DNA of 63,744 bases from Candidatus Aenigmatarchaeota archaeon (GCA_003553905.1 PWEA01000035.1:1-63744); one strand, 5' to 3'. Positions 19,016 through 48,605 are shown, counted from the first letter of the stretch. A program made the numbers and translations. The notes: generated by a model from the sequence alone, not told the origin.

Positions 19016-19234
19016 ATGTCCAGGAAAGTATGCCCGAACGAATATATGAACAAAGAACAATGTACCTGCACATACCCTGGATGTCCACGTAAAGGAATCT
19101 GTTGTGAATGTATCGAACACCACAGAAAAAACAATGAGATTCCGGGGTGTCTTTTCACAGAACAAGGAGAAGAAACCCACGATAGATCGATGGAAAACCT
19201 TATCGAAGATAGAAAAATAAACAAGGGCTCGTAG
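19016..19234 (+). CDS. Small Cys-rich protein (DUF6485-like CTCTYPGC...CCEC motif)
   Basis: The 72-aa ORF contains CTCTYPGCPRKGICCECIEHHRKNNEIPGCLF. Its last 10 nt overlap the 5' end of tRNA-Lys(UUU). Confidence 0.55.
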   Translation: MSRKVCPNEYMNKEQCTCTYPGCPRKGICCECIEHHRKNNEIPGCLFTEQGEETHDRSMENLIEDRKINKGS

Positions 19235-19409
19235 CTCAGTCTGGCAGAGCACTGGGCTTTTAACTATTTGCAAACGGAGTTTCGCAAAACTGAAACTCTG
19301 TTCCATAAATGAGGTTAAAAGCTCCGACGTAGACCGGTTAATATCAGTATCAAGGTCACGGATGAAGAAAGAAACCCAGTAGTCGCGGGTTCAAATCCCG
19401 TCGAGCCCA
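19225..19409 (+). tRNA. tRNA-Lys(UUU), 185 nt, with a 111-nt anticodon-loop intron
   Basis: The acceptor stem is GGGCTCG/CGAGCCC. The anticodon arm is CTGGG-CUUUUA|intron 19263-19373|A-CCCAG, and the T arm is GCGGG-TTCAAAT-CCCGT. No CCA is encoded. Confidence 0.85.
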
Positions 19410-27160: not shown

Positions 27161-27183
27161 ACTCGAATAAAATATCCTCCTAT

Positions 27184-27278
27184 GGGCCCGTAGCTCAGTC
27201 TGGCAGAGCACTAGGCTCTTATGGTCTGTAAAGGTCTGAGAAACCTAGGAGTCGCGGGTTCAAATCCCGTCGGGCCCA
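27184..27278 (+). tRNA. tRNA-Lys(CUU), 95 nt, with a 21-nt anticodon-loop intron
   Basis: The acceptor stem is GGGCCCG/CGGGCCC. The anticodon arm is CTAGG-CUCUUA|intron 27222-27242|A-CCTAG. The D and T arms are identical to those of tRNA-Lys(UUU). Confidence 0.88.
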
Positions 27279-27291
27279 TGACCAGACGTAA

Positions 27292-35163: not shown

Positions 35164-35700
35164 ATGACCCAAGAATTTACCAGGGAGATATACTCAGACT
35201 GGATGAGATCCACACAGGAAAAGAAGTACAAGGAGATACTTCTGGACTTCATACTACCAATGAAGGATAAAATTAACCTTGACAGAGACAAAATACTCGA
35301 TGTGGGGATTGGGAAAGGCTGGTTTGAGAAAAAACTCAGGGATCGTGGGATTGAGAACAGTATAATAGGCCTCGATGTCGAAAAGATGGGTTTAGCATCA
35401 AAGGATATTGAATTTATAGTAGGGTCTGGTGACTATATGCCATTTAGAAACAATAGCTTCGATATAGTCCTCTCTTTTGATACAATACATCTACTTAAGA
35501 GGCCCCAGGAAATAGAAAGAGTTTTGTCAGATGATGGATACGCCATTATTTCAACGCACTGCAACGAAAGAAATTTTAAAAAGAGGGGAGACAAAATTAA
35601 ATCATTATTCGACATGGAGGTATTGAAGGAGGGAATCGTCGGAGATCCAAACGATGAAATGAGTTACGTTGTACTTTTCAGGAACGGGTCCGTGGTCTAG
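35164..35700 (+). CDS. Class I SAM-dependent methyltransferase
   Basis: Motif I ILDVGIGKGWF and a Methyltransf_11-like region (FDIVLSFDTIHLL) are present. The last 15 nt overlap tRNA-Val. Confidence 0.75.
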   Translation: MTQEFTREIYSDWMRSTQEKKYKEILLDFILPMKDKINLDRDKILDVGIGKGWFEKKLRDRGIENSIIGLDVEKMGLASKDIEFIVGSGDYMPFRNNSFDIVLSFDTIHLLKRPQEIERVLSDDGYAIISTHCNERNFKKRGDKIKSLFDMEVLKEGIVGDPNDEMSYVVLFRNGSVV

Positions 35701-35761
35701 TGGCTATGACGTCGCCTTGACATGGCGAAGGTCCCCCGTTCAAATCGGGGCGGACCCACCA
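35686..35761 (+). tRNA. tRNA-Val(GAC), intron-less, CCA encoded
   Basis: The cloverleaf has acceptor GGGTCCG/CGGACCC and anticodon arm TCGCC-TTGACAT-GGCGA. Confidence 0.92.
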
Positions 35762-35797: not shown

Positions 35798-36694
35798 TCA
35801 AATGCTTTCTTTAACTGTGAGGCTGGTCTCTTGGTCTATGTAGTAACCGTAGTCTAGGTTCACATCAATAGGAACTTCCAGGAAGTTTACATCCTCATCT
35901 ATTTCGCCTCTGCAGATTATCTGGAAATCACCGCCGTATACCCTTACATTATCATCACTACAATCTTCGTCCTCCCAACTTACAGGAGTATCTTCAGGGA
36001 AGCTTACATCTACACTTATCCTGTTTCTCTGCTCCCGTCCCGGAATCTCACCTTCGCCGTGGGCATCTTCAAGGTATGGAACTCCACCACCTATATTCTG
36101 TCCCTGTATGTAGAACCTGAATGTTGTGTCGTCTTCATCTATAAGAACAGGTGAAGGACCGTCTATTCCGACGGATAATGGTCCACGGGACATTCTTGAA
36201 ACGCCCATATCAGGAATAGGATCTCCTACCTCTAGTCTCATTGCGTACTCGTCTTTTTCTATTACTGGTAGTAAGACCCTTGCATCCGTTTCGTATTTAT
36301 AATAAACTCTCGACCTTATACCAACGTTCTCGGGACCAACAGATATCTGAGGAGCGGTCATGCTGGCAGTAAATGTATGCATCTCACCTTCAAAGTCCTC
36401 CGTTGGGGGATCCAGAAGTACTTGATCCTGAAATCCATCAACCTCAATAGACCCGCCGGCTCTTTCGACATTGGCCCATACATCCTCGGCTGTCCTGTCG
36501 CCCATGTTCTGGACATCTAACAATAGGTCGAAAGAATCACCAGAAAAAACTTCGGGTGGAATTGCGTCAAAAGAAGTTATCTCAACTCCATATCCAACTT
36601 CCTCGTCGTCCTCACCGAATTCAATACATCCAGAAATAAATACCAAGGATGCTGCAAGTAAAACAATAAACATCTCTTTTCTTCTTGTTACCAT
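35798..36694 (-). CDS. Envelope paralogue A: lipobox protein with two beta-sandwich domains (298 aa)
   Basis: The signal/lipobox is LVFISGC. Domain 1 is CARDB-like (FDLLLDVQNMGDRTAEDV, RVYYKYETDA). Domain 2 contains RGPLSVGIDGPSP...FYIQGQNIGGG and a conserved Cys pair. Confidence 0.75.
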   Translation of the reverse strand: MVTRRKEMFIVLLAASLVFISGCIEFGEDDEEVGYGVEITSFDAIPPEVFSGDSFDLLLDVQNMGDRTAEDVWANVERAGGSIEVDGFQDQVLLDPPTEDFEGEMHTFTASMTAPQISVGPENVGIRSRVYYKYETDARVLLPVIEKDEYAMRLEVGDPIPDMGVSRMSRGPLSVGIDGPSPVLIDEDDTTFRFYIQGQNIGGGVPYLEDAHGEGEIPGREQRNRISVDVSFPEDTPVSWEDEDCSDDNVRVYGGDFQIICRGEIDEDVNFLEVPIDVNLDYGYYIDQETSLTVKESI

Positions 36695-36750
36695 ACTACC
36701 TACAACAATCTTTTACTCAGGTATTTATAAACTTTACCCTAATAACTCCG

Positions 36751-37632
36751 TTATGGCTCTATATTAACAAAAAACGATCCATCCCTAACATAGGTGTAAT
36801 CGGCGTCCATGTGGAAAGTAGCCGTTTCTACTGAATCGACACTGTCTGTGGAAAATCTGCAAGAAACTCTCGCTGTTCTTCCGTTTCTAAACCTTATATC
36901 CTCAAAGACTATAGGTTTGTCGCCTGTATCCATGTCCTGACAGCCTCCAAACTCTAATATATCATCCTGATAATACATCTCTACATCACCGCCTTGTATT
37001 ATATTATCCCTAACAAATCCATCGCCTTTGTTTTCAAAATGGAAGTGAACCAAAAAATCATCGCCTTCTAAAAGAGGCTGTTCCTTGGAAATTTCGGCTA
37101 TTATTTCAACAGGTGTACGTGTTTTTTCGTAGCGTACGTCAGATTCTTCGCCCAGATTCCCCATCCTCTCCCTTGTTATATACTCCTCTTCGTCCATTAT
37201 ATTCACACTAAAAGTGGCGTGCGCACTCGACTCATATGAAACCCTGTATTTCATATCGCATCTCTCTTCCATGCTAACCTCAGGTGCCCGATATTCTATC
37301 TCAAGCATGGTTTTATGACCGGGCTCCAGTTCGTCATCAGCAATGTCATGCTCTGTTTTTTCTTCAAACAAACAGCTATCCACCATTCTAAGCTCTATGT
37401 TTTCGGGTGTAGTATTCCCGCTGTTTACCACGTCAAAAACAACATCCATGTCCCTACCCGAGCGTACATTCATAGGAAAAGCTTCAGCACTCACGGAAAT
37501 CTCTTCATGTTCTGTGTATTCGGGTTCACCAAACCCAAGAAATCCTGTTCCTGCACGATCGGCACCAGGAAAGCCTGTGCAACCAGAAACCATTACTATC
37601 AAGAAAATGCTTATAATTATAGTCTTTTTCAT
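36751..37632 (-). CDS. Envelope paralogue B: lipobox protein with two beta-sandwich domains (293 aa)
   Basis: The signal/lipobox is LIVMVSGC. Motifs include MDVVFDVVNSGNTTPENI, KYRVSYESSA and RTPVEIIAEISKEQP...HFHFENKGDG, plus a Cys pair. Confidence 0.75.
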   Translation of the reverse strand: MKKTIIISIFLIVMVSGCTGFPGADRAGTGFLGFGEPEYTEHEEISVSAEAFPMNVRSGRDMDVVFDVVNSGNTTPENIELRMVDSCLFEEKTEHDIADDELEPGHKTMLEIEYRAPEVSMEERCDMKYRVSYESSAHATFSVNIMDEEEYITRERMGNLGEESDVRYEKTRTPVEIIAEISKEQPLLEGDDFLVHFHFENKGDGFVRDNIIQGGDVEMYYQDDILEFGGCQDMDTGDKPIVFEDIRFRNGRTARVSCRFSTDSVDSVETATFHMDADYTYVRDGSFFVNIEP

Positions 37633-37641
37633 CCTATACCC

Positions 37642-38598
37642 CTACAACGTTGGTTGGATAGAAACAGAACCCTCTCCTTCCAACGTATATTCATAGTCCT
37701 CAACATTCACCCTAATCTGGAAGCTGGACAATGGCTCCTCGAAATATTCACTATAACCATCCGGATAAAGTCTGCAGCTTATCGGCGGCGTCCTGCCGTC
37801 TATAAACTGTAATTCTTCGGAATCACCAACAGGACTTCTACATCCTGTCTTCCAGTCCGTTTCTTCGTCCAAATATTCATCGTAACCAAGCTCTTTTTCG
37901 GTTTCACCGTAGTCCAGTGTGATACTAACATCACGCGGTGTAAGATCATCCAAACTACCATCACCTGCATTCCTCAGTCTAACCTGGAACGGAATGGCAC
38001 TTCCGCTTCTAAAGGGTTGCTGACCACTGAAATCAATATCTACCTTTACAGGTCCTCTGGCCTTGCCCGTCGTAGGTGATACGCTGGCCACTTCAGAATC
38101 ACGAGAAACATCCTCGTCCATAACATAGACATCAGAACGACTGTAAGCATCAAACTCATATTTTACATAGTATTTCAGGGGACAAGAACCTGCCATATGC
38201 CCAAGCTCCTGATCAGTGGGAGCATCCATTCCCCATTCGATTACCCTTGTGGCACCCTCAAAAATACTATCTCCATCTATTGCTTGGGGATCATGACCAG
38301 GCCTTAGATCACACATACCAGAATCGTACAACCTTACTTCGACGTTTCTGGCACTCTCTGCATCGAAAAGATTCGTCAGCTCAAATGAAAACTCAAACTG
38401 TCCTTCGGCATTAACTGTAGATGGGTCTACCCTCTGGTTTCTAATAACGAGAACGTCATCGGGTTCTTCGACCTCCTCTGTACCTACACCCATAAGGCCT
38501 CCCAGACCCCCGCCTTCAACACATCCGGATATAAATAAAACCAGAGGGATCAAAAATACAAAAACCGCAAGCTTTTTCATACAATCACTATCAATCAT
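37642..38598 (-). CDS. Envelope paralogue C: lipobox protein with two beta-sandwich domains (318 aa)
   Basis: The signal/lipobox is LVLFISGC (the start may be the internal ATG 38580). Motifs include FEFSFELTNLFDAES, KYYVKYEFDA and RGPVKVDIDFSGQQP...QVRLRNAGDG, plus a Cys pair. Confidence 0.75.
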   Translation of the reverse strand: MIDSDCMKKLAVFVFLIPLVLFISGCVEGGGLGGLMGVGTEEVEEPDDVLVIRNQRVDPSTVNAEGQFEFSFELTNLFDAESARNVEVRLYDSGMCDLRPGHDPQAIDGDSIFEGATRVIEWGMDAPTDQELGHMAGSCPLKYYVKYEFDAYSRSDVYVMDEDVSRDSEVASVSPTTGKARGPVKVDIDFSGQQPFRSGSAIPFQVRLRNAGDGSLDDLTPRDVSITLDYGETEKELGYDEYLDEETDWKTGCRSPVGDSEELQFIDGRTPPISCRLYPDGYSEYFEEPLSSFQIRVNVEDYEYTLEGEGSVSIQPTL

Positions 38599-38638
38599 TG
38601 AGTTTTATTGTAATATAAATGTTTGGGGTTTCTTTACA

Positions 38639-40408
38639 CTATGAATATAAAACCTCTATAACGTCTGTCGTCTCCATCTTGTATATATAGCTCATATCCA
38701 CCCTCAGATCCCTGGTCTCTGTTATTTCAGTTGGCTCATTTACATCAATCGTACAGCTCATTGTAAGGCTATCGTACTCACTTCCCCGGGGCTGAAGTCC
38801 GAACCACCCGAGATCATCAAACTTATCATCATATTTCTTGGCAAAATCACATTCATCAAGTCCTTCAAGCCATTCATCATCGGACGTAGTTATGCTTATA
38901 TCCTCCAACGACTTCATCTGTCCGTCGTCCTGGTTCCTGAGCGTAAGAATCAACGGTATCGACTCGCCTCCTCTTATCGGCTGCTGCCGCGAGGCCGCCA
39001 TTCCTATCTCAACGGGACCCCATTCAAATCTTGATATAGGCTGATGGAACTCAAGATCACCTCTCTCTGATAGTTCCATAAACCTAGAGCTATCTATGAT
39101 CTCTACTTCAAGTAGAGAGCTTGTATTAACCACATAGTTCGCGTCTATGCCGTACCTCAACTGATCGCCTGGCTGGACCTGGCCCCTCCACAACAAATCA
39201 AGGACATCCAGGTCGTCTGCAAGGTCATCGAGATCTTCTCTTCTCAACAGCCTTCTCATCGAATTCTCTGCTACATCTATCGAAACTCTTGGAATTTCTC
39301 TTTCATCCAGATCATCGATTATATCATCAAGGGCTCCCCCGGTCTCGGATGCAACGGAATCAGCCAAGCCGGAATCTACTTCACCTATTACTTCTTTGAT
39401 CGTGTCAGTAACAACATCAATTTTATCCTTTTTATCCTCAGCTTCGTCAATCCTATCATCGATCTCGTTCTCCATTCTCCTCACGCGATCACTTCCTATA
39501 ATACTACTCAAAACATCTTCGGCCTCATCCAACCAGAGAGGCACTAGATGGTACGGATCGTTGAAGTGTTCTCTCGAAAACTCAACCTGATACTGATGCA
39601 TAACACCAGGATTGAGACTTTCTATATGACAAGGGTAGTCGTCAGTGACGTCGTCAGTGTCGTCACAGTGGGGACCAACTATGTTTCCTCCCGTGGCAGC
39701 GATGTCTGCATCGGGCCTACCTATGAACTCCACATCCTTTGGCTTCATTCTTAGTTCACGGATAACAGGAGGATTGATATAATCGTCGTGTGACAGTCTA
39801 TTTTCTATTTCAAACGTCGAGCTAAACACAGTACTGTCCTCATCCATTTCTGCTACATTACCGACACGACCCAATCCTATAGGATCTGGCCTAGAAAGTC
39901 TAAGGGCCTGATATTCCTTCTCAACTTCGCCCCTGGCGTCAAACATATCATAACATTCCATAGGAGAAGAAAGACATGTCCATCCTCTACCGAGGCTCTC
40001 CTGCATACTGGTAAAGCCTTCCATGGCAGGACTTGCCGCCTGTCCTATCTCCTCTGCTCTGGCTCTGACAGTAGGCCACCATTCACCGAAAACTGCTGTG
40101 CCCATTATATCAGGATAACTTGCAGTAAGTGACATTAGAGCAATGGCCACAACAAAAACACCGAAAACGCCCTTTGCCTGTGGAACCAGAATAGCAATCA
40201 TCAAACCTGTTGTAATAATCGAAACAAAAAGTATCATTGCTATAGGATTATCCCAGAGAGCAACAATACCCAAAATCATCGCTATAGTTCCAAAAAGAGC
40301 GGGTACAATAGACCGAATACTTGTGTGCTTACCGACCTTCCATAGAGCATATCCAGATATAGAAAGAAGGACGACTACTATTATCGCTCTCATAACTGTA
40401 CCTAACAT
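38639..40408 (-). CDS. Envelope paralogue D: 4-TM N-terminal anchor, acidic helical region and the shared C-terminal beta-sandwich domain (589 aa)
   Basis: The first 110 aa or so form four hydrophobic helices. The C-terminus (WGPVEIGMAASRQQPIRGGESIPLILTLRNQDDG...C...SC) is homologous to domain 2 of A-C. The start lies 3 nt after the upstream stop. Confidence 0.75.
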   Translation of the reverse strand: MLGTVMRAIIVVVLLSISGYALWKVGKHTSIRSIVPALFGTIAMILGIVALWDNPIAMILFVSIITTGLMIAILVPQAKGVFGVFVVAIALMSLTASYPDIMGTAVFGEWWPTVRARAEEIGQAASPAMEGFTSMQESLGRGWTCLSSPMECYDMFDARGEVEKEYQALRLSRPDPIGLGRVGNVAEMDEDSTVFSSTFEIENRLSHDDYINPPVIRELRMKPKDVEFIGRPDADIAATGGNIVGPHCDDTDDVTDDYPCHIESLNPGVMHQYQVEFSREHFNDPYHLVPLWLDEAEDVLSSIIGSDRVRRMENEIDDRIDEAEDKKDKIDVVTDTIKEVIGEVDSGLADSVASETGGALDDIIDDLDEREIPRVSIDVAENSMRRLLRREDLDDLADDLDVLDLLWRGQVQPGDQLRYGIDANYVVNTSSLLEVEIIDSSRFMELSERGDLEFHQPISRFEWGPVEIGMAASRQQPIRGGESIPLILTLRNQDDGQMKSLEDISITTSDDEWLEGLDECDFAKKYDDKFDDLGWFGLQPRGSEYDSLTMSCTIDVNEPTEITETRDLRVDMSYIYKMETTDVIEVLYS

Positions 40409-40411
40409 CTT

Positions 40412-43400
40412 CTAATCACCATCACCTTTATCATCACCCTGCGATGCCTGCGATGCAGCAACATTTGCTGCCATACCTGCTTCTGAAGCACCACCAGTAG
40501 CATAAGCCATTGCAGCTCGTTGAGCCATCTGTTTAGTTTGTTCTTTTTTATCCGATTTTTCATCTTTTTCTTCTTCCTTACTTTCCTCCTCTTCAAATTC
40601 TTCTATAAGAAAATCAGGAACTACCAGGAAGAATGCAAGTACAAGGCAGACTGTAATAGCACCAAGCATAGGCTCCGAAAATACGGACCTGAATGTCCAA
40701 AGAAACATCACTCCAACGGACAATGAAAAAAACATCCTTATAGTTTCACTAACTCTTCTAAATTCTGCATCCTTCTTACCAGAAGAAAGTGTCCCTGTAA
40801 AAGAGATTATTCCAAAGGAACCAATCAAAAGAGGTATTAGGTTAAAAATAGGCCTATTACCCACGAACAGCTGAACACCTATCATAAGAAAGATAAATCC
40901 CATGGCTCTAAATATAGGACGTACATTTCTATATGGCTCCTTCATCGGTAAAAACTTTCTTGTTGTTAGCAAAATCAGTGCAACGATTATAAAACCTGTT
41001 GCGTATGGACTAAAACCAAGGAATGGTAAAATTATAGCTGCTAAAACAGGAATAAATACGGAAGTAGCCAATGTAGTTGCACTTCCAGGAAGCATTTCAC
41101 TACCAACAAGGCCTTCCTTTTCCTGATCAGTCCTACACTCATCGCAGATGTAGCCGCCCGTTGGAAGAGGCTTCCAGTCATCGTTATATTCTTTTAGAGG
41201 CTTTCCACACTTTACACATCCGGCTTCGCCTTCTTCGTCCTCATCGTCATCTTCTGGAGGACCGGGATCGGGTGGTGGTGGATCAGGATAATCATGATCC
41301 TCATCGCCGGGTTCGTTATCGTCGGGGATTTCTTTGTCGGTTGACTGTTCATCGTCGGGGTCGGGATAATCAATACCCTCTTCGGGTTCGTTATCGTCGG
41401 GGATTTCGTCGTCAGTAGTATTCTCCCAGTCTGGCTTTTCGTCATCGTCGTCGCGATCTTTCTTCTTTTTGATCATTTCTAACTCAATATCCGTGTTACC
41501 GGTCAATCTAACCTGTATACCTCTTTTATTTTTTATTTCGTATGTGAAACCCGATTCCGCAGCATAAGAAGACTTATCTTTATCAATCAAGAGGATGCCC
41601 TCACCAAAGCCCACTGCCTCGGATTTTGGAATCTCTATCCAGAAGGTTCCATTTGGACCTGTGGGTTCCGAAAAATAATTCTTTTTGCCTGCGTCCAATC
41701 TTACAACTGCGCCTTCGACATACTCCACGGGTTCACCGCCACTCAAAGCCACGACACTACCTGTGAGGTTGATAAATTGATCAGAGTCTGAATTCCCTCC
41801 CTCGCCAACCCATACCAATTTTAGTTGATAATCACTTGCATGGGCTTCATGAAGCATTATTCTTCTCTCCTTGGGATACCTTCTCCAGTGTCCTTTTCCT
41901 GAACTACTGTAAGAATTCTTCTTGACTTTTATTGTACCTTCTGTCACGCCTCCGTCTGCCTTAGGAACCTCAATCCAAAAAGCTCCATTTGGACCTGTGG
42001 GTTCTGACTCATACTTTTCTCCATCGACTTCTGCAACAACAACTGCACCCTCAAAGGGTTCATCAAGTTCACCTTCCACTGATGAAAAAACGTTACCCGT
42101 GATGTTCACTATATCGTCATCAACTCTCTCAGAACCAGAAGATCGGTGGGTTGATTCTGTATCCGTTCCCTCGGAACCAGAAGGGGACTGAGTCTGTCTC
42201 ACAGTGTCCTGGTTTTTATTACCTTTGTTCTGTTCAGAGCTTGGGCCGTGGCCTCTCTTCTTCTTTTTGATCATTTCTAACTGAACATCTGTATCGCCAG
42301 TCAGTTTAACAGGTATGCCCCTTGTATCTGTTCTTGCATATGTAAAACCCGGATCCGTGACATAAGAAGACTCGTCTTTATCAATCAAGAGGATGCCCTC
42401 ACTAAGACCTTCTACTTCAGACTTTGGAATCTGGATCCAGAAGGCTCCATTTGGACCTGTTGGTTCCGAAATATAATCCATCTTAGTTGTTTCCAATCTT
42501 ACAACTGCGCCTTCGACCATTTCCTCAGTGTCACCGCCACTTAGCGCAACAACATTACCCGTGAGGTTTATGAATTCATCAGAATTCGAACCAGCATCGC
42601 CATCTGCATCTACACCGGGTCCGGAACCTTCCAAACTATCTACATAATCATCCTCACCCTGTTCTCTCAACATTTCTTTAAGAAGTTCGGGTTGCTCGGC
42701 CGGTGACTTCAACTTTCCTTCGGATTTATACTTTTCGGGAATCTCTTCGCCCCTTTGGTGCATCTTCAATAGTCTTTTTATTTCATCGGGACTGGTGCTC
42801 TGATCAATGGCTTGATGAGCTGTCTCCTTTGCCTCTTCGACTTCCTCCAAAACTTTATCCCTATCCTCTTCAGCATCACTAACAACACCGCCTTCTAGTT
42901 TTCCTTCCGTTTTCTCTAGAACCTCATTTTTTATTTTTTCCTTTTCTTCTGGGTCCGTAATTTCCTTTCCATTCCTTACATAAGTAGCCGAATCACTGCT
43001 TAGAACATTGTCCGTTATTTTCTTCGCTTTCTTGGACGCTTTCTTCTGAGCAAACTTATTAAGATAGAACTCTACTTCTTCTACTGTTTTCATATCCGTT
43101 GTATCAATACCAAGCTTTTCCTCGAACTTTCTCCTCTTCTCCTTGGGATCATTAATTTTATTGCCTTCCTTGTCCCATGCTTCGAGTCTGTCGCTTTCAA
43201 ACGGATCAGAACCCCTGTCACTGGCTTCCATCATCTCCGGATCCTTGAGGTTGTCTCTGGCCCTGGATATACCTACATCTTTATTCCTCTGAACCCTACT
43301 ATTCGTTTCCTGGCTGTATATCTTATCCGCCGCGTATTCCACATATTCTGGGTTAGCTTCTTGGAACAACTTCACGGTTTTGTTTACAGCTACTTCCTTG

Positions 43401-43474
43401 GTGTGACCCATCTTCATGTGGTTAGAAATGGCCTGCTTTATTCTCCTTTTGAGCTCATCGGTCAAAGTTTTCAC
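40412..43474 (-). CDS. 1,020-aa multidomain protein: K/E-rich N-terminus, three CarboxypepD_reg-like repeats, acidic Pro-rich tandem, zinc ribbon and a C-terminal polytopic membrane domain
   Basis: The ORF is long and clean, with no N-terminal signal. Three copies of FINLTGNV...EGAVV...EPTGPNGAFWI..PK are followed by CVKCG...x19...CDEC and then about 6 hydrophobic helices (aa about 800-955). Confidence 0.8.
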   Translation of the reverse strand: MKTLTDELKRRIKQAISNHMKMGHTKEVAVNKTVKLFQEANPEYVEYAADKIYSQETNSRVQRNKDVGISRARDNLKDPEMMEASDRGSDPFESDRLEAWDKEGNKINDPKEKRRKFEEKLGIDTTDMKTVEEVEFYLNKFAQKKASKKAKKITDNVLSSDSATYVRNGKEITDPEEKEKIKNEVLEKTEGKLEGGVVSDAEEDRDKVLEEVEEAKETAHQAIDQSTSPDEIKRLLKMHQRGEEIPEKYKSEGKLKSPAEQPELLKEMLREQGEDDYVDSLEGSGPGVDADGDAGSNSDEFINLTGNVVALSGGDTEEMVEGAVVRLETTKMDYISEPTGPNGAFWIQIPKSEVEGLSEGILLIDKDESSYVTDPGFTYARTDTRGIPVKLTGDTDVQLEMIKKKKRGHGPSSEQNKGNKNQDTVRQTQSPSGSEGTDTESTHRSSGSERVDDDIVNITGNVFSSVEGELDEPFEGAVVVAEVDGEKYESEPTGPNGAFWIEVPKADGGVTEGTIKVKKNSYSSSGKGHWRRYPKERRIMLHEAHASDYQLKLVWVGEGGNSDSDQFINLTGSVVALSGGEPVEYVEGAVVRLDAGKKNYFSEPTGPNGTFWIEIPKSEAVGFGEGILLIDKDKSSYAAESGFTYEIKNKRGIQVRLTGNTDIELEMIKKKKDRDDDDEKPDWENTTDDEIPDDNEPEEGIDYPDPDDEQSTDKEIPDDNEPGDEDHDYPDPPPPDPGPPEDDDEDEEGEAGCVKCGKPLKEYNDDWKPLPTGGYICDECRTDQEKEGLVGSEMLPGSATTLATSVFIPVLAAIILPFLGFSPYATGFIIVALILLTTRKFLPMKEPYRNVRPIFRAMGFIFLMIGVQLFVGNRPIFNLIPLLIGSFGIISFTGTLSSGKKDAEFRRVSETIRMFFSLSVGVMFLWTFRSVFSEPMLGAITVCLVLAFFLVVPDFLIEEFEEEESKEEEKDEKSDKKEQTKQMAQRAAMAYATGGASEAGMAANVAASQASQGDDKGDGD
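41240..41413 (-). repeat. Tandem acidic/Pro-rich repeat (EIPDDNEP..DYPDP twice, then PPPPDPGPPEDDDEDEEGE)
   Basis: The DNA repeat GGGTTCGTTATCGTCGGGGATTTC occurs at about 41311 and about 41385 on the plus strand. Confidence 0.8.
41459..42586 (-). repeat. Three tandem repeats of about 105-110 codons (carboxypeptidase-regulatory-like fold) inside the 1,020-aa ORF
   Basis: The copies span aa 297-406, 452-556 and 562-672. Copies 1 and 3 are still similar at the DNA level (for example CTTTATCAATCAAGAGGATGCCCTCAC at about 41577 and about 42378). Confidence 0.8.
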
Positions 43475-43636
43475 CTTAGTTCCATGGAATCTCGATAAGA
43501 GCGTTAAATATGCTCTTCCAACTAAGAAACATTTTGTAGCCCTTATTAAAATAATTTGCCCCGGTCCTCTTTTTTCTGATGTGTTTCTTTGATTTTACTA
43601 TAATAATTTTTTATAACTGATAAATCCATTATTAAC

Positions 43637-45622
43637 ATGCCAAACCGCGTCAAAGTATCTTCAGAGAAGGATATGAGTAAATTAAAAGAAAGGTGCGGCG
43701 CAAAGTTCGAGAATGTTCTAAAGCTTCTAGGGAGTAAAGACAAGCAAAAAATAAAGGACGGGAAGGTGGACTTCTATTATGATTTCAGGTCGCTTGTGCC
43801 TCCTTCGCCCGAGGAAGTCATAGGTTTTCTTTATAATCAGAAGGAAAAACTGATCGTTGCAACCCCCAAAAGACTCTACACCATAAAACCGAAGGATTTA
43901 AAGAGCCCGAAGCTCTTCGCTGGGTCACTTGCAAAGGAAATAAGGAAAAGGAATATGCACGAAGGCGTGAAACAGTACGGAAGCTTTGATGATATGATGG
44001 GTGGGTGGCTCGGTGAAATAGAGAGATCGAATTCTCTTATGTTGTTCATGAGGGAAATACCGGACATCGGAAGAACCAGACCCAGAAGAACAGAGGCGAG
44101 GCCTTCAGAACCGTCTGACAAGGAAGAGCTCAAGAAGTATGAGGGGAAAACCTCTAAGAAGAGGCCGTTGGTAGATCTTCAAAAAACAAGTTCAAAAACT
44201 GCGTCAGAGGTTTATTACCATGGAGACCAGGAAAGGGGCTTAAGGATTGTTGGAGAAGGTAAAAGGCTTGAACATAAAAAAGAGCTTCAACCAGGATTTG
44301 AAAAAAGAAATCTAGATGGAATCTGGTTCAATATTTCCCCGGAAGTGAACGAAGTTCTCTATCATGTGTATGGCAAAGACGGTACAGAACCTCTTTTCAG
44401 AATTTTAAAGGAAACAGAAGTTTGGGAAAACTTTGCACAACTTGCGAAAAAAAGAGGACTTGAAGAAATAAATGTCGAACCAACATATAAATCACCAGGA
44501 ACATCTTCTACGGGTGGTGGACAGGGCTCACATATACTCACAAAACAGGCAAAGGAAATTTCTCAAGGTCAAAGACGCGAGGCGGATTTGTTCTATAATA
44601 CAACCAATCAAGAAATCATTGAATCGGATGAAAAGAGCTTGGCTGGTAAAGCAGGAGAGCCAGCAGAAATAATAATACATGAAATATCACATCTTGTAAC
44701 AAAAATCGAGGAGTTTGAAAAGGACAGGACTGCAACAAGAACAGCATCAAGATTCGGAGATGCCTATAGATGCTACTACTGCGGCGAGGAATTTGCATTT
44801 TATAATGATTTTATAGAACACGCAGAAAATGAACATGAAGGTATAGAAGCTGAGAGCATACTGAAAAACGACAGCAGAAGAAGAAACATGATGAACAATG
44901 CCGAAGAATACATTGCAGATATGGGATACCTAATTAAGAATCTTCGTTATTCGTACACAAGGTTTTGGGAAAATGCATACGAAGAAGGGATATCAGTACT
45001 ACAGGAAAAGGGTATAGAAAATTTGGATATGTCCAAAGCATCGCGATTAATGAACAAAGATCTAAGAAGGGGCTTTGAAAAAGATGTAGAATCACTAAAC
45101 ACTGCATTATCTAACACAGAAGAAGTAATCGATATGCTGTTAGAAGAAGTTGACGATGGGATGACACCAGATAGGCTCAATGAATACAATCAAATACTTA
45201 AAAAGTTCATAGATATTTTAGTTGGCACAAAAGAAAAGCGAGGAAGATTCCAAAGCAGAGCTATTTACACTATAGGTTTTGTAGCCATGACAGCTTATAT
45301 TGCTATCACGAATGCCAATCTCAGAGATGTAATGGACATGGGGGCACGTACCTTTTGGAAAGATTTTAGAATAAAATGGGAAAGAATGGAGAATAGCTCT
45401 GAAATGGATTTAGGTCGTTTTCTCAGTAAAGAACGGAGTCACGATGTGTTCTATAGAGTCGATGAAATTTACAAAGTTTATCTCACAGGTGTCGAAACCA
45501 TAAGAAAGGCAGAGAAAGTACGTAAAAAATACCAAAGAAAGATGCCATGTCCTAAATGCAATAGACTTTGTGATGAAAACTGGAAAGTATGTGTGTATTG
45601 TGGTGAAAAGATAATAAGATAA
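43637..45622 (+). CDS. 661-aa protein with a HEXXH motif, C2H2 zinc finger and C-terminal zinc ribbon; unknown function
   Basis: IIIHEISHLV lies at 44678-44692, YRCYYCGEEFAFYNDFIEHAENEH at 44771-44836, and CPKCNRLCDENWKVCVYCG at the C-terminus. The gene is divergent from the island operon. Confidence 0.75.
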   Translation: MPNRVKVSSEKDMSKLKERCGAKFENVLKLLGSKDKQKIKDGKVDFYYDFRSLVPPSPEEVIGFLYNQKEKLIVATPKRLYTIKPKDLKSPKLFAGSLAKEIRKRNMHEGVKQYGSFDDMMGGWLGEIERSNSLMLFMREIPDIGRTRPRRTEARPSEPSDKEELKKYEGKTSKKRPLVDLQKTSSKTASEVYYHGDQERGLRIVGEGKRLEHKKELQPGFEKRNLDGIWFNISPEVNEVLYHVYGKDGTEPLFRILKETEVWENFAQLAKKRGLEEINVEPTYKSPGTSSTGGGQGSHILTKQAKEISQGQRREADLFYNTTNQEIIESDEKSLAGKAGEPAEIIIHEISHLVTKIEEFEKDRTATRTASRFGDAYRCYYCGEEFAFYNDFIEHAENEHEGIEAESILKNDSRRRNMMNNAEEYIADMGYLIKNLRYSYTRFWENAYEEGISVLQEKGIENLDMSKASRLMNKDLRRGFEKDVESLNTALSNTEEVIDMLLEEVDDGMTPDRLNEYNQILKKFIDILVGTKEKRGRFQSRAIYTIGFVAMTAYIAITNANLRDVMDMGARTFWKDFRIKWERMENSSEMDLGRFLSKERSHDVFYRVDEIYKVYLTGVETIRKAEKVRKKYQRKMPCPKCNRLCDENWKVCVYCGEKIIR

Positions 45623-45692: not shown

Positions 45693-46217
45693 CTAAGGCT
45701 TGTACTCGTCCTTTCTCTTGAGCTTAGCACTGTTAATGCCGCTAAAGTACTCGTCCACGGCCCTATCGTCCTTGTTTTCTATTGATTCAATCTTTCCTTC
45801 CAATCTCTCGTCCAGCTTCTTTTCAATTATTGAATCGCCACCTGACATTTCATCCCTGAGCTCAGCCTTCCTTCTTTCGGCCCATTCTCCATAATCCTCG
45901 CGCCGGACCTGATCTTCCATTGGTTTGTTAGGGTCGTATCCCCTGTTCTTCTTCTCTTCCTTCAGATCGTCTTCCACAGGAATAAAACCAAGAATCTTAC
46001 TTGTTATACTTGATCTTGGTTTGTTGATACCCGCCTGATTTTTGTCACTATAAAGAGATTTCTCGGCGTCTATTATATCTTCTTCGTTTGCTAGCGGTCC
46101 AGTCCCGTTGGTTACAGCATCAATGGTTTCTCCTGCATCCATGGCGTCCCAGTAACCAATCTTCTTTTTTATCTTATCGAAACCAAGTTCCACAAGAGGA
46201 CCTTTTTTATTAGACAT
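45693..46217 (-). CDS. Hypothetical acidic soluble protein (174 aa)
   Basis: The ORF is clean. A TATA-like GTTTAAATACC lies about 39 nt upstream on the minus strand (plus-strand 46248-46265). I recognise no motif. Confidence 0.6.
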   Translation of the reverse strand: MSNKKGPLVELGFDKIKKKIGYWDAMDAGETIDAVTNGTGPLANEEDIIDAEKSLYSDKNQAGINKPRSSITSKILGFIPVEDDLKEEKKNRGYDPNKPMEDQVRREDYGEWAERRKAELRDEMSGGDSIIEKKLDERLEGKIESIENKDDRAVDEYFSGINSAKLKRKDEYKP

Positions 46218-46326: not shown

Positions 46327-47523
46327 TCAAAAGGCTACGTTGAAATCAGAAAGATAAAATCCTCCTTCGCCGACAACAACAAATTCCAGTTTGTTTTCAC
46401 CGATTGCGACATCTTCCTCTTCTAGGGATACCACCACAGTTTTACCTTCCTTCAAAACCTCTTGTATAAGTACCCTATTCTTTTCTCCTTCGGCCGTTGT
46501 GATATCCATGTGAAGGTACTCGGGGGTTCCTTCTATCCTATCTATATGGAAGCTTATCTCCCCTGGTAACCTGTTATAATCAACCGAACTGACCTCTATA
46601 GTCTTTATTGGTCTCCTGATGTCTTCTGTCTCCCAGAAGTACACCATTTTAGCCGAGTTGAAGCTATATAACGAATCGACTTCGGTGAACAAAGTCAAAG
46701 TATTTTCCCCTTCGTACATAGGGATATCCTCGAAGTCTATCCACATAGATCTTCTGTCCGGCACAGCCGAAGTCTGTCTATAGACATCCCTCCCATTGGC
46801 CTGGATAACAAGCGGGCTTTGAGCATCGAACTCCCTGGGATCTAGAACAAGTCTACCCATCAAAAAGTTGTCTGCCTGGTCTCTGTCCAGAGAAAATGAG
46901 AATGTTCTGTCCTTCCTTTCAAGAATATCTGCCTTTATTCGGAAATCCTCCAGTATGTACACAGTCGGAGCCCAGAATCTCCAGCCGGAGGATCCTGCAG
47001 AAATCTCCATCATGTTGTTTTGCTCAAGCAAAGACTGGTTTATATCAAAGCTGTAGGATCTTCCACCGTCGGGGTAGCCAGAATATATCTCCTCGTCGTT
47101 TAGAACTATATACATCTCATCAAGATGGTTTGTATCGTGCACGTAGAAATCCATCTCCATGGATGTCATCTTATCCAGCTGGTCTTTGGTTAGATCAAAC
47201 TCTATATACTGTGGCTCGTTGGAGAAGATGCCGCGTTTTATCTCGGTTCTATTAATATCGCCTATAATCCTCTCTTCGTCACGAAACGTGATATCGAACT
47301 GTTTATCCGTAAGACCCACGTGCTTGTAGTCTGTGCCTTCTATCCACCCAACGAAGAACTGATCATCAGGATACTCGACCGCGGGGGGTTCATCCGGATC
47401 CTCGTCATCAACAGGAAACCTGTCTCTATCCGGTCTTGTATCAAAGTCTACCTCACCGCCGAAGATAGCAAGTAGAACTCCGAATAGAACAATAGCAACA
47501 ATCAAAACCTTTGCGAACTCCAT
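46327..47523 (-). CDS. Single-pass (N-terminal anchor) envelope protein, 398 aa, beta-rich acidic ectodomain
   Basis: The N-terminal helix is MEFAKVLIVAIVLFGVLLAIFGG, followed by an acidic Pro-rich linker and a beta-rich domain. I recognise no family. Confidence 0.7.
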   Translation of the reverse strand: MEFAKVLIVAIVLFGVLLAIFGGEVDFDTRPDRDRFPVDDEDPDEPPAVEYPDDQFFVGWIEGTDYKHVGLTDKQFDITFRDEERIIGDINRTEIKRGIFSNEPQYIEFDLTKDQLDKMTSMEMDFYVHDTNHLDEMYIVLNDEEIYSGYPDGGRSYSFDINQSLLEQNNMMEISAGSSGWRFWAPTVYILEDFRIKADILERKDRTFSFSLDRDQADNFLMGRLVLDPREFDAQSPLVIQANGRDVYRQTSAVPDRRSMWIDFEDIPMYEGENTLTLFTEVDSLYSFNSAKMVYFWETEDIRRPIKTIEVSSVDYNRLPGEISFHIDRIEGTPEYLHMDITTAEGEKNRVLIQEVLKEGKTVVVSLEEEDVAIGENKLEFVVVGEGGFYLSDFNVAF

Positions 47524-47579
47524 CTTATCACTTATATTAATTAACCGACTATTAAAATATTTATATGTAGGTGTAACCT

Positions 47580-48605
47580 TTGAAAATTCTCCATAGAGAC
47601 AAGAAAGATGGTGTGCTTAAGCTTAAACTGGAGAATCCCAACGATATATGGGAACTAGAGAATGTACTGAAGGAAGGTGATTTTATAGGCGCGAAGACTC
47701 TCCGAAGGAAGATGATCCAAAGAAAGGATGGCCAGGAAAAGGGTGAAAAGAGGCCAGTATACTTGACGATAGAACTTGAAAAAATAAAGTTCCACGAACA
47801 CACGGGGAACCTACGTCTTACAGGACCAATCGTAGGCGGGCCTGATGATGTAGACATGGACAGCTATCATACTATAAAGGCGGAGCCGGGCAAGGTTCTT
47901 TCGGTTACAAAAAAGGACGGATGGAAACAATGGGAACTGGAAACCATAAAAAGAGCCTACAGAAAGCCTCCAAAGGTTCTCGTTTGTGTACTTGACAGAA
48001 ACAGCGCAACAATAGCAAAGGTGGAAAGTAGTGTTGAAATCATATCGAAAATAGATTCGGGAATATCAGGAAAACAGTACGAAGCGGAGTACAAAGACAG
48101 ATACATTGGAGATATACTTTCCACAATGAAGAGGAAGGCAGATGATTATGAAAAAATAATAATTGCAGGTCCTGGTTTCATGAAGGAAGAGCTCATGTCC
48201 AGAATAGAGGATGGGGATCTGGAAGATAAGGTGGTCAAAGACAGTATTTCCCAAACAGGTGAAACAGGAATACAGGAAGTCATAAAAAGAGGTACCGTAG
48301 AAAGGATTGCAAGGAATTCAAGGATCTCGGAGGAGACAGGTAAGATAGAAGAGGTTTTTGAGGAACTTTCGAAAAACACGGGCAAGGTAGCATATGGTAA
48401 GGACGAGGTGAAAAGGGCAGTGGAACTGGGAGCAGTAAAAAGGGCAGTGGTTTCTAAAAAATTCATAAAGAGCAATCAGGAGCTAATAGAAAAAATCGAG
48501 GAAAGGGGAGGAGAGGTAACAATATGTTCAGAAAGACACGAATCAGGTGAAAAGCTCGGTGGCATTGGTGGCATAGCAGCGATATTAAGATATAAAATAG
48601 ACTAG
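47580..48605 (+). CDS. pelA: Pelota (aDom34) ribosome-rescue factor
   Basis: The N-terminus is MKILHRDKKDGVLKLKLENPNDIWELENVL, followed by central and eRF1-like C-terminal domains. The start is TTG. Confidence 0.9.
   Translation: MKILHRDKKDGVLKLKLENPNDIWELENVLKEGDFIGAKTLRRKMIQRKDGQEKGEKRPVYLTIELEKIKFHEHTGNLRLTGPIVGGPDDVDMDSYHTIKAEPGKVLSVTKKDGWKQWELETIKRAYRKPPKVLVCVLDRNSATIAKVESSVEIISKIDSGISGKQYEAEYKDRYIGDILSTMKRKADDYEKIIIAGPGFMKEELMSRIEDGDLEDKVVKDSISQTGETGIQEVIKRGTVERIARNSRISEETGKIEEVFEELSKNTGKVAYGKDEVKRAVELGAVKRAVVSKKFIKSNQELIEKIEERGGEVTICSERHESGEKLGGIGGIAAILRYKID

Follow-up and report, generated by a model that had tools for sequence, protein, structure and literature searches.

An uncharacterised gene cluster in tiny symbionts of the DPANN type, coding for a polytopic membrane protein and three paralogous surface proteins with predicted lipid anchors

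Five closely spaced ORFs (A to E) on the minus strand of a 63,744-nt stretch of DNA from Candidatus Aenigmatarchaeota archaeon (the window) raise the question of whether their products act together at the cell envelope and, if so, in what role. The ORFs lie exactly where the first-pass annotation had placed them, with the inter-gene gaps of 3, 40, 9, and 56 nt that it had given, and all of the sequence motifs cited there were found. They belong to an uncharacterised cluster found in very small, symbiotic, DPANN-type archaea; its products include a polytopic membrane protein and three paralogous surface proteins with predicted lipid anchors. Several of the relatives that carry the cluster are labelled as DPANN-type archaea.

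Extent, conservation, and transcription of the cluster

The region is part of a conserved envelope gene cluster of archaea, arranged as w398-E-D-C-B-A. This order, with orthologous C, B, and A, was found again in distant relatives, of which two carry the label Aenigmatarchaeota. The window and loci L004, L012, L015, and L016 share both the order of the cassette and the positions of the C, B, and A orthologues, and the reading of the genes as one conserved functional module was supported. Paralogue triplets are also present in a distant group (L007–L009). The unit originally delimited (35798–43474) was too narrow, because the 398-aa gene w398 (46327–47523, minus strand) also belongs to the cluster. 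Its product starts with a hydrophobic anchor, followed by an ectodomain that is acidic and probably rich in beta strands; Pfam returned no family for it. With tblastn, w398 homologues were detected immediately ahead of the E-D gene in L016 (49% identity, 1.5e-128), L013 (1e-54), L012 (2e-38), and L022/L023 (3e-10), and this upstream position is kept in four lineages.

The 174-aa charged orphan ORF w174 (45693–46217, minus strand), located between w398 and E, is a doubtful member of the cluster: no homologue was found in any locus examined, and an unrelated 171-aa ORF occupies its position in L012. A unique gene, w661, is inserted upstream of E in the opposite orientation and gave a weak endolysin match in PHROG (E 0.0012). 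The earlier argument built on the nearness of a giant adhesin-like ORF of 5,040 aa (48602–63724) did not hold, as no homologue of this ORF occurs within the loci examined of L016, L013, L022, and L012, the relatives with upstream sequence; at the corresponding position, L016 has no giant ORF.

ATPase, protease, and glycosyltransferase genes were not detected in the cassette, as noted before, and neither were phage or defence families. PHROG returned no match for A to E, w398, or w174, and PADLOC none for any cluster protein; searches of PDB, Foldseek, phage, and defence resources gave no specific match either. The cassette is flanked by conserved housekeeping genes (a pelota-like gene, a methyltransferase, HAD, ThiI, and CTP synthase) that retain the same order in several genomes, and the GC content shows no anomaly.

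The cassette had been described as a five-gene operon. This view did not hold, because promoter-like TATA boxes are conserved in the D-C gap, in the B-A gap, and upstream of E in three genomes. Upstream of E, the promoter-like element CAAATTATTTTAATAAGGGCTACAAA (43533–43558, minus strand) recurs as an identical 26-mer upstream of the L004 E orthologue. The D-C gap contains the BRE/TATA-like box CAAACATTTATATT (38612–38625, minus strand), a putative promoter that is conserved in L004 and takes the form CAAAGATTTATATT in L016. A further putative promoter, the BRE/TATA-like box TAAAGTTTATAAATA (36722–36736, minus strand), lies 27 nt upstream of the ATG of A, with the same 15-mer in L004 and L016. 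These boxes ahead of E, C, and A point to three probable transcription units (E-D, C-B, and A) rather than one operon, with transcription probably driven by the three similar promoters. In addition, the TATA-like box AAATATTTTAAT (47551–47562, minus strand), located 27 nt upstream of the w398 ATG, shares its motif and position with L016 and is a putative promoter of that gene.

Lipoproteins A to C and the split membrane protein E-D

Proteins A (35798–36694), B (36751–37632, 9 nt after C), and C (37642–38598), all encoded on the minus strand, are Sec-type lipobox proteins with predicted lipidation. Their signal peptides, recognised already in the first reading, consist of a K/R-rich N-terminus and a hydrophobic stretch followed by ISGC, VSGC, and ISGC, respectively. 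The ORF of C was confirmed at its coordinates, whereas its start is more likely ATG 38580 (312 aa) than ATG 38598, because it is the start called in the database and because the other ATG lies just 13 nt from the conserved TATA-like box. All three proteins share the same two-domain architecture, with A the most divergent paralogue. In the AF2 model of C (pLDDT 75.6, pTM 0.68), beta-sandwiches span residues 50–160 and 184–315. Homology between domains 1 and 2 is supported by hhalign (probability 93%, E 2.9e-7); each lipoprotein is one Ig-like beta-sandwich duplicated in tandem.

The proposal that A to D are paralogous, envelope-exposed proteins was supported, with BLASTP similarities beyond chance (B-C 2e-15 to 5e-19, A-B 8e-8, C-D 7e-8). 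The family HMM matched all four at 4e-20 to 4e-91; as it was built with A to C inside, the match to D (4e-20) is the sole independent one. No named family accounted for the shared domain in Pfam, NCBIfam, a PDB sequence search, or Foldseek, where only generic tandem Ig folds with TM-scores < 0.25 were retrieved, and the earlier label "CARDB-like" describes a resemblance only. The family is far from a narrow orphan group. It comprises at least 1,807 clusters at 50% identity, with no Pfam model, and its acidic-residue fraction of 8 to 24% indicates that it is not confined to halophiles. A lipobox-like Cys motif was present in 124 of 150 sampled representatives. The lipoprotein assignment is also favoured by the DUF63 (AliA/AliB-family) genes that lie next to or near the module in several relatives. 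Characteristic features are two paired Cys residues, a Y-x-Y strand at the end, and, at the start of domain 2, a motif of the form RGP-x-K/E-hydrophobic (e.g., RGPVKV in C). Orthologues of C sit at the same cassette position in L004, L012, L015, and L016; a C-like protein can also occur alone, outside any cassette (P0007 in L001). A to C are under purifying selection, with 53–62% identity to their L016 orthologues, compared with 55–60% for the neighbouring HAD and ThiI enzymes.

Protein D (38639–40408, minus strand; 589 aa) is the fourth paralogue. The four-TM anchor and domain 2 previously assigned to it were found, but it does not carry domain 2 alone, since both domains of the tandem Ig-like ectodomain are present. 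Domain 1 is degenerate and is interrupted by a highly acidic, helical insertion of about 125 aa (aa about 285–410; 39179–39556, minus strand) that is specific to this genome and missing in a 465-aa orthologue and in the fused relatives compared. The AF2 model of D (mean pLDDT 64.5) has four TM helices and two regions of beta-sandwich, and its insertion is predicted as all-helical at low confidence. The membrane helices contain conserved intramembrane Pro/Gly/Arg positions and no conserved charged residues. The juxtamembrane FGEWWP motif at the outer membrane face is invariant.

Protein E (40412–43474, minus strand; 1,020 aa) represents the N-terminal part of a split gene. From its N-terminus, it comprises a conserved helical motif (aa 1–95), a charged region, three CarboxypepD_reg-like repeats (aa about 296–690), an acidic linker, a Zn ribbon (aa 753–780), six TM helices (aa about 797–961), and a charged tail. 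This agrees with its first description as a Zn-ribbon/polytopic protein, with a CxxC...CxxC ribbon followed by about six hydrophobic helices. The Zn ribbon (41105–41224) and the six-helix membrane domain (40580–41104) make up the conserved core (40580–41224, minus strand), and the E6TM HMM matched L004, L012, L013, L015, and L016 (1e-52 to 4e-73). Compared with L004, the N- and C-terminal parts are kept and the middle is replaced. Repeats 1 and 3 are 70% identical, and repeats 1 and 2 39%; the Pfam CarboxypepD_reg match is weak (23.6 bits vs a cut-off of 32.3). Hydropathy and the positive-inside rule suggest an N-in/C-in topology. Domains of the CarboxypepD_reg-like type are found more often on the outside of cells, which counts against a cytoplasmic placing of the N-terminal region.

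E and D are halves of one gene that encodes a single polypeptide in most relatives. D is in frame with E, with TAG plus one codon between them, and the counterpart in eight relatives is one chain of 834–1,333 aa (fusions in P0038, P0058, P0116, L012, L013, L015, and L016). The fused forms have one helix more than D at this place (five vs four), which fits a split that would leave the E tail inside and the D N-terminus outside. A fused protein would thus consist of a variable cytoplasmic N-terminal region ending in the Zn ribbon, six TM helices, five further TM helices, the FGEWWP motif, and an extracellular tandem-Ig ectodomain. The E/D homologues were recovered in only a handful of loci.

Possible roles of the module

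We tentatively favour, at somewhat less than even probability, a membrane-anchored hetero-oligomeric surface platform for cell-envelope contact; such a complex is a plausible candidate. The E/D membrane core would project its ectodomain from the outer membrane face, where it may join the three paralogous lipid-anchored proteins, one per conserved subfamily, and probably also the signal-anchored w398. The resulting platform would touch, or act upon, the envelope of a host or partner cell, and the variable cytoplasmic half of E could couple it to something intracellular. Indirect support for a contact role comes from three distant D-like proteins that carry murein-hydrolase domains at their outer end, namely SLT in L017 (46.5 bits) and L018 (28.5 bits), and Glucosaminidase in L019 (55 bits), all above the Pfam cut-offs. 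These clades are only 23–33% identical to D. Large extracellular SLT proteins of DPANN archaea were earlier proposed to bind bacterial walls (PMC8204110). In such lineages, the hydrolase would sit covalently at the distal end of the platform; nanohaloarchaeal-type proteins have no enzymatic domain, and the haloarchaeon-associated type found here would offer binding or scaffold modules only.

It is somewhat unlikely that the lipoproteins and the E/D anchor are instead a housekeeping structural layer or spacer, with no specific role in host contact, that keeps the envelope architecture by organising a pseudo-periplasm, anchoring an S-layer, or forming the lattice. A to C are conserved to a degree similar to that of the neighbouring HAD and ThiI enzymes. 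Because they evolve no faster than these housekeeping neighbours, a structural role fits better than arms-race host recognition. The scaffold reading also gains from the very large family extending beyond halophiles, the fixed subfamily composition and gene order, the tandem Ig-like fold common in surface-layer proteins, and the L007 triplets near S-layer-like giant glycoproteins. However, no similarity to S_layer_N/C or any S-layer family was found, and a scaffold explains neither the variable cytoplasmic half of E, roughly 800 aa long and with a Zn ribbon, nor murein-hydrolase fusions in archaea that have no murein of their own.

An uptake machine is distinctly unlikely. Here the E/D core, with its 10–11 helices, would act as a channel or carrier, and the lipoproteins and w398 would capture or guide a scavenged substrate (e.g., lipids, nucleic acids, or pieces of cell wall) of host or environmental origin. 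The many TM helices, their conserved Pro/Gly/Arg positions, and the invariant FGEWWP motif are compatible with transport, and hydrolase fusions could free wall fragments for uptake. DPANN archaea also have small genomes and rely on scavenging (PMC8204110). On the other hand, an ATPase or known transporter family is absent in and near the cassette, the lipoprotein fold is Ig-like and unlike that of a substrate-binding protein, the D helices contain no conserved charged residues, and Foldseek with the D model retrieved no transporter.

Transmembrane signalling, in which the Ig-like assembly would detect a ligand or contact and relay the signal to a cytoplasmic region of E that would bind nucleic acid or a regulator, appears very unlikely. 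The cytoplasmic half is modular and variable, with Zn ribbons and C2H2-like fingers in relatives and weak matches of L013 to transcription-related Zn-ribbon families. All of these Zn-ribbon and finger matches are nevertheless under the Pfam cut-offs, and no DNA-binding or kinase domain is recognisable. CxxC motifs are absent from P0058 and L017–L020, the only CxxC pairs of L021 lie far N-terminal of the membrane domain, and ten to eleven helices are unusual in a one-component sensor.

There is little to recommend E/D as a factor of lipoprotein biogenesis, e.g., the archaeal signal peptidase for lipoproteins that is still missing, or a sorter of its own kind, with A to C as substrates. An archaeal Lsp is not known (PMC12462473), the acidic/aromatic motif at the outer membrane face is conserved, and D-like genes occur repeatedly beside genes of the DUF63 (AliA/AliB) family: adjoining or nearly adjoining the module in L012, L017, L020, and L021, and ≤7 kb away in L001 and L022. 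AliA/AliB are archaeal lipoprotein lipidation enzymes found in DPANN (PMC12462473), and dependence of the module on lipidation explains this adjacency equally well. Moreover, the membrane/juxtamembrane region of D has no Asp, His, Ser, or Cys that is invariant across clades, and the YPD motif is lost in distant members; E/D homologues were recovered in a few loci only, whereas both lipoproteins and AliA occur widely among archaea.

Finally, an integrated virus or mobile element encoding virion or envelope proteins, which the orphan proteins throughout the cassette, the inserted w661, and the variable middle of E might suggest, is essentially refuted by the conserved housekeeping flanks, the PHROG and PADLOC results, the unremarkable GC content, and the lack of a specific viral structure match.

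Comparison with known systems

Like CARDB/COG1361-type Ig-like domains (Pfam PF07705), the domains of A to D are extracellular beta-sandwiches of about 110–130 aa, and both have the strand motif type x-N-x-G-x-G. However, the Pfam CARDB model matches none of A to D even at E = 1, and the family's Cys pair, Y-x-Y strand, and RGP motif are its own. The best Foldseek matches were other stalks of two consecutive beta-sandwiches (integrin alpha thigh/calf, Cna-type adhesin, complement MG, and transglutaminase C-terminal barrels). With TM-scores of at most 0.24 and 7–15% identity, this is a generic fold likeness that carries no functional inference. The giant SPEARE-type adhesins of Nanohaloarchaeota, represented here by the 5,040-aa ORF, are likewise surface-exposed and Ig-rich and occur in the neighbourhood of the cassette in the window, but they are not homologous to the cassette proteins, and the adjacency is not shared by L016, L013, L022, or L012 within the loci examined.

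VirB1/PrgK-type SLT proteins and the FlgJ glucosaminidase are membrane-anchored wall hydrolases of trans-envelope machines. The distant clades alone resemble them, in that a membrane-tethered stalk would present SLT or glucosaminidase for local wall opening. The homology does not extend beyond the hydrolase domain, the enzyme is missing in the window's version, and the surroundings contain no secretion ATPase, pilin, or channel component. The D-like homologues of L017 and L018 are archaeal membrane proteins of 900–1,100 aa with SLT outside, and in this they resemble the large extracellular murein lytic-transglycosylase proteins of Woese- and Pacearchaeota (fam00969; Castelle et al. 2021, PMC8204110), to which they may or may not belong; for such proteins a role in cell-cell interaction was proposed. 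In contrast, D in the window has no hydrolase domain and has separate lipoprotein partners instead.

A to C share the signal peptide and the [LVI][ASTVI][GAS]C lipobox with archaeal lipoproteins matured by AliA/AliB (arCOG02177, Pfam PF01889/DUF63), and lipoproteins and AliA are reported to be prevalent in DPANN (PMC12462473). Relatives of the module adjoin DUF63 genes, whereas the 63.7-kb window contains none. The characterised Haloferax lipoproteins are mostly Tat-dependent solute-binding proteins. Unlike these, A to C are Sec-type tandem-Ig proteins, predicted to be lipidated, that come in fixed sets of three paralogues alongside a polytopic partner.

Composition of the cassette and its protein family

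The five minus-strand ORFs of the first-pass annotation, with intergenic gaps of 3, 40, 9 and 56 nt, were reproduced by ORF calling. E (40412-43474, 1,020 aa) encodes a Zn-ribbon protein with about six hydrophobic helices, D (38639-40408, 589 aa) opens with four helices, and C (37642-38598, 318 aa), B (36751-37632, 293 aa) and A (35798-36694, 298 aa) encode lipobox proteins. The cassette proteins were strongly acidic (19-22% Asp plus Glu). The window also contains 5S rRNA, probably intron-containing tRNAs and an archaeal-type eRF1/pelota-like gene, which identify it as a chromosomal piece of a salt-adapted archaeon. In agreement with the annotation, no ATPase, protease or glycosyltransferase family was matched anywhere in the cassette, nor was any phage or defence family. 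Across all cluster proteins, Pfam, NCBIfam, PHROGs and PADLOC yielded no match above threshold. The proposed paralogy among A-D was statistically sound at BLASTP E-values of 8e-8 or better (B-C, 2e-15 to 5e-19; A-B, 8e-8; C-D, 7e-8).

Several tRNA genes were mapped on the plus strand. A tRNA-Val gene (35686-35761) lies 37 nt past the gene A stop, on the opposite strand, and overlaps the final 15 nt of a methyltransferase ORF (35164-35700). The gene at 27183-27279 (97 nt), labelled "tRNA-Stop (tta)" by ARAGORN, probably contains an intron, as does that at 19225-19409, where the Rfam tRNA model spans 185 nt and which was missed by ARAGORN.

The N-termini of A, B and C consist of a basic and hydrophobic signal peptide followed by ISGC, VSGC and ISGC, respectively (FISGC with Cys23 in A; MVSGC with Cys17 in B; FISGC with Cys26 in C, or Cys20 from ATG 38580). 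All three conform to the pattern [L/V/I][A/S/T/V/I][G/A/S]C, as expected from the lipobox-ended signal peptides first noted. The AlphaFold2 model of C (pLDDT 75.6, pTM 0.68) showed beta-sandwiches at residues 50-160 and 184-315. When the two domains were aligned profile to profile, the match probability was 93% (E 2.9e-7), which indicates that the two-domain unit is an internal tandem duplication. When the C model was compared with PDB and viral structures by Foldseek, only generic tandem-Ig matches were obtained (TM-score <= 0.25), the best of them to integrin alpha legs, Cna-type adhesins, complement MG domains and transglutaminase barrels, and no specific viral structure was matched. The lower-confidence D model gave no Foldseek match at E < 1e-3, and sequence searches of the PDB with single proteins and with the family profile gave no useful match. 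The shared domain had been called CARDB-like. This stands as a resemblance but not as membership, because Pfam CARDB (PF07705) did not match A-D even at E <= 1; the one match for A-D in the Pfam scan was a weak one, of B to N_BRCA1_IG (18 bits vs a cut-off of 28). The domain thus remains without a named family, with no specific match in Pfam or Foldseek.

An exhaustive search with a HMMER profile built from A, B, C, a D orthologue and three C homologues retrieved 1,807 representatives (50%-identity clusters) at E <= 1e-3, 638 of them at E <= 1e-10, with a median length of 317 aa. The family size had been badly understated by a word-indexed homologue search, which returned 7-17 proteins (six homologues of C). 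The lipoprotein family is therefore large rather than a narrow orphan. Its acidic-residue content ranges from 8 to 24%, so that it extends beyond halophiles. A lipobox-like Cys motif was present in 124 of 150 sampled representatives, in strict form in 95; those that lacked it were mostly truncated gene calls or helix-anchored fusions. A Pfam scan of 19 representatives and two window proteins gave no family-defining match, and no description of the lipoprotein family was found in the literature searched. These results support the view that the cassette is a previously undescribed envelope module of paralogues.

The split E/D gene

Upstream of its six helices, E carries a CxxC...CxxC ribbon at residues 753-780. 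In three family representatives, P0038 (855 aa), P0058 (1,333 aa) and P0116 (1,113 aa), the N-terminal part matched E and the C-terminal part D; fused E-D proteins were also found in the related loci L012, L013, L015 and L016. The window copy of D continues the reading frame of E after TAG plus one codon. On sequence grounds, E and D are a single gene split in two. Stop-codon read-through or recoding at this junction was rejected as unlikely: the close relative L004 has TAA in place of TAG, the three stop codons are evenly used in the window, and a read-through product would carry the wrong helix parity. Between the E-type six-helix domain and the ectodomain there are five helices in the fused proteins and four in window D. 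By the positive-inside rule, the 790 N-terminal residues of E and its C-terminal tail would be cytoplasmic and the start of D and its Ig domains outside, so that the split appears compatible with a consistent topology. A 275-aa ORF in L022 (6286-7110, plus strand) opens with a CxxC...CxxC ribbon directly upstream of a 659-aa D-like gene, which suggests an independent E/D-type split in another clade.

D was said to carry domain 2 on a four-helix anchor. Domain 2 is indeed present, but D holds both domains; its domain 1 is degenerate and broken by an acidic insertion of ~125 aa (residues ~285-410). This insertion was modelled as all-helical (AF2) and is absent from a 465-aa orthologue and from all fused relatives compared. 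In the membrane and juxtamembrane region of D, Gly, Arg, Pro, Phe and Trp occupy invariant positions and an FGEWWP motif is present; no Asp, His, Ser or Cys is invariant there. An Lsp-like peptidase was rejected as an identity for D, since it lacks invariant catalytic-type residues.

Only the first ~85 residues, the Zn ribbon and the six helices of E are conserved between genomes, and the middle region is replaced wholesale. In the window, this region (residues ~296-690; 41405-42589, minus strand) contains three CarboxypepD_reg-like repeats. The first shares 70% identity with the third and 39% with the second, which suggests that repeats 1 and 3 result from a recent internal duplication. Assignment of these repeats to CarboxypepD_reg (PF13620) is probable at a sub-threshold score (23.6 bits, below the gathering score of 32.3); homologous N-terminal regions of D-like proteins score above it, at 32.9 bits in L018 and 35.0 bits in L020. 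The L004 orthologue of E has a wholly different middle region with a C2H2-like finger.

Conserved gene order, probable transcription units and neighbours

Position-by-position BLAST showed that the first, second and third lipoprotein genes of L004, L012, L015 and L016 are orthologous to C, B and A, so that the cassette order is conserved in related genomes. The limits 35798-43474 initially set for the module were too narrow, because the upstream gene w398 (46327-47523, 398 aa) is also part of the conserved unit. Its product combines a hydrophobic anchor at the N-terminus with an acidic ectodomain. Homologues of w398 immediately precede the E-D gene in L016 (49% identity), L013, L012 and L022/L023. 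The more distant L016 has the canonical layout pelota-like gene (divergent), w398, fused E-D, C, B, A, followed by the methyltransferase and membrane-protein genes that also flank the window cassette. Between w398 and E, the window has two ORFs that L016 lacks, namely w174 (174 aa) and the oppositely oriented w661 (661 aa). The w661 ORF (43637-45622, plus strand), located between w174 and E, encodes a protein with a C2H2-like finger (YRCYYCGEEF...HAENEH) and, at its C-terminus, a double Zn ribbon (Pfam DZR, weak). No homologue of w661 was found in any related locus, which makes it look like an insertion specific to this lineage. The eRF1/pelota-like gene (47580-48605, plus strand) is divergent from w398, an adjacency repeated in L016, L013 and L022/L023 that would reflect either old conserved synteny or shared regulation.

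The records of loci L012 and L013, and of the genome that encodes both P0007 and P0038, carry the label Candidatus Aenigmatarchaeota; a genome-collection search with a narrow alignment returned two genomes (L012 and L013). A distant group (L007-L009) has tandem triplets of one B/C-like and two A-like genes, with no E/D gene nearby, and L010/L011 show two such genes (contig start). In L007 (1-5669, minus strand), ~3 kb upstream of the triplet, two genes encode proteins of >1,000 aa that start with a signal peptide, are rich in N-x-S/T sequons and have an anchor at the C-terminus. MJ0043_C and DUF1512 genes lie downstream of the triplet, an arrangement kept in L008-L010.

Short A/T-rich boxes are conserved among the window, L004 and/or the much more distant L016. 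The CAAACATTTATATT box (38612-38625) in the D-C gap and the TAAAGTTTATAAATA box (36722-36736), 27 nt before the start of A, are conserved in all three; a 26-mer upstream of E (43533-43558) is common to L004, and the AAATATTTTAAT box (47551-47562), 27 nt before w398, is common to L016 (all minus strand). We take these boxes to be putative promoters, since their form and distance match archaeal BRE/TATA promoters of leaderless or short-leader mRNAs. A single five-gene operon had been proposed. All five genes share one orientation and are separated by 3-56 nt, yet in three genomes the D-C and B-A gaps hold conserved TATA-like boxes, spaced from the start codons as promoters would be. The cluster is thus probably not one operon, and the likely units are w398, E-D, C-B and A, with predicted transcription starts near 47523, ~43520, ~38589 and ~36697. 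In addition, the D-C box points to ATG 38580 as the probable start of C (312 aa), in agreement with the database gene call.

A giant ORF (48602-63724, minus strand; 5,040 aa) has a PQQ-like beta-propeller near its N-terminus and many Big_10/Big_5/Big_13 domains (bacterial Ig-like/Fn3), and it looks like an adhesin. Its proximity had been used to argue for the role of the module. This argument fails because the neighbour is not conserved: no homologue was found within the compared loci of L016, L013, L022 and L012, and the corresponding position in L016 has no giant ORF. A functional tie of the cluster to this ORF was therefore rejected.

The window contains no DUF63 ORF. In L012, the E-D gene and C are separated by a DUF63 gene (Pfam PF01889, E 2e-69); in L017, L020 and L021, DUF63 genes lie convergently after, or <= ~1 kb from, the distant D-like genes, and in L001 and L022/L023 they are 4-7 kb away. 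The DUF63 family includes AliA and AliB, for which lipidation of archaeal lipoproteins has been demonstrated, and it is reported in DPANN (PMC12462473). Its adjacency in relatives supports the predicted lipoprotein status of A-C type proteins. As a large and clean collection of predicted Sec-type archaeal lipoproteins, these could serve in work on the newly discovered lipidation pathway. In L001, the C-type two-domain protein P0007 (9983-11401) has an N-terminal multi-helix anchor in place of the lipobox; its gene is solitary, beside SRP54 and 4 kb from the DUF63 gene, and the same genome encodes the fused E-D protein P0038 at a separate site.

Possible role and comparison with known systems

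DPANN archaea rely on physical contact with host cells, and to our knowledge the proteins that build this contact are largely unknown. Our leading interpretation, held at somewhat less than an even chance, is that w398, E-D and A-C form a membrane-anchored hetero-oligomeric surface platform. The E/D core would display a tandem-Ig ectodomain as the partner of the three lipid-anchored paralogues and, probably, of w398, and the platform would mediate contact with, or action on, the envelope of a partner cell. Distant lineages would attach wall hydrolases covalently to the same platform. Distant D-like proteins, which form the clades L017 + L018 + L020 + L021 and L019 + L022, share the four-helix/FGEWWP region and one family domain. 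Polytopic members from other metagenomic lineages end in murein-hydrolase domains above the Pfam cut-offs, namely SLT in L017 (2-2692; 46.5 bits) and L018 (2425-5757; 28.5 bits) and Glucosaminidase in L019 (1-2685; 55 bits). The D-like proteins of L018 and L020 also have an N-terminal CarboxypepD_reg domain above its cut-off. We know of no archaea with murein, so these enzymes should act on the wall of another cell. Binding to bacterial walls has been proposed for large extracellular SLT proteins of DPANN (PMC8204110).

A purely structural envelope scaffold is a less likely alternative, favoured by housekeeping-like conservation. A-C are 53-62% identical to their L016 orthologues and are conserved like the neighbouring HAD and ThiI genes (55-60%); D (45%) and E (34%) evolve faster. 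No Pfam, NCBIfam or PDB match linked the proteins to S-layer families (S_layer_N/S_layer_C, SlaA/SlaB types), and Foldseek returned generic Ig folds only. Even as a structural envelope component only, the proteins would be a major unannotated family worth naming.

That w398-E/D-C-B-A is the core of a genuinely new, DPANN-wide cell-cell interface machine has a low probability. In such a machine, four paralogous tandem-Ig units, of which one is held by helices and the others by lipid anchors, would be arranged as a pseudo-symmetric ring on top of an 11-helix membrane core. This ring would dock on the host envelope and, in bacteria-associated lineages, open it via the fused murein hydrolases, or alternatively gate material exchange at the site of contact. 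Cargo would be selected or received by the variable, Zn-ribbon-bearing cytoplasmic half of E.

An uptake machine is improbable: transporters with lipoprotein binding components would be expected to have an SBP-fold lipoprotein, whereas A-C are tandem beta-sandwiches, judged from the C model, and no ATPase or known permease family of ABC/TRAP transporters was found in the cassette or flanks. A signalling device is very doubtful. We give only slight credence to a lipoprotein-processing factor, a role that the DUF63 genes near D-like genes in relatives would suit and that the D residue pattern does not favour. A mobile or viral origin is scarcely credible and was rejected, as it is contradicted by the conserved housekeeping flanks; PHROGs had no match for A-E, w398 or w174 (w661 had a weak match to an endolysin family, E 0.0012), and PADLOC had none among the eight proteins (A-E, w398, w174 and w661).

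The cluster provides a defined candidate: a conserved surface set without a Pfam model, comprising at least 1,807 clusters, with a fixed three-paralogue composition, a polytopic core (split or fused) and an anchored upstream partner. Genomic context links it to lipoprotein lipidation (AliA family) and, in distant lineages, to enzymes that cut bacterial walls. It is a tractable candidate for a host-contact or envelope apparatus in cultivated nanohaloarchaeon-haloarchaeon pairs.

The cluster also differs from type IV filaments and archaeal pili. No secretion ATPase or platform families were found, the N-termini of A-C are lipoboxes in place of the class III signals of archaeal pili, and the w398 N-terminus (MEFAKVLIV), by inspection, has no K/R-G/A cleavage motif. 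The parts are of familiar kinds, namely lipobox lipoproteins, Ig-like surface domains and a polytopic anchor; what is new, as far as checked, is the fixed three-paralogue composition, the split or fused 10-11-helix core, and the links to the AliA family and to murein hydrolases.
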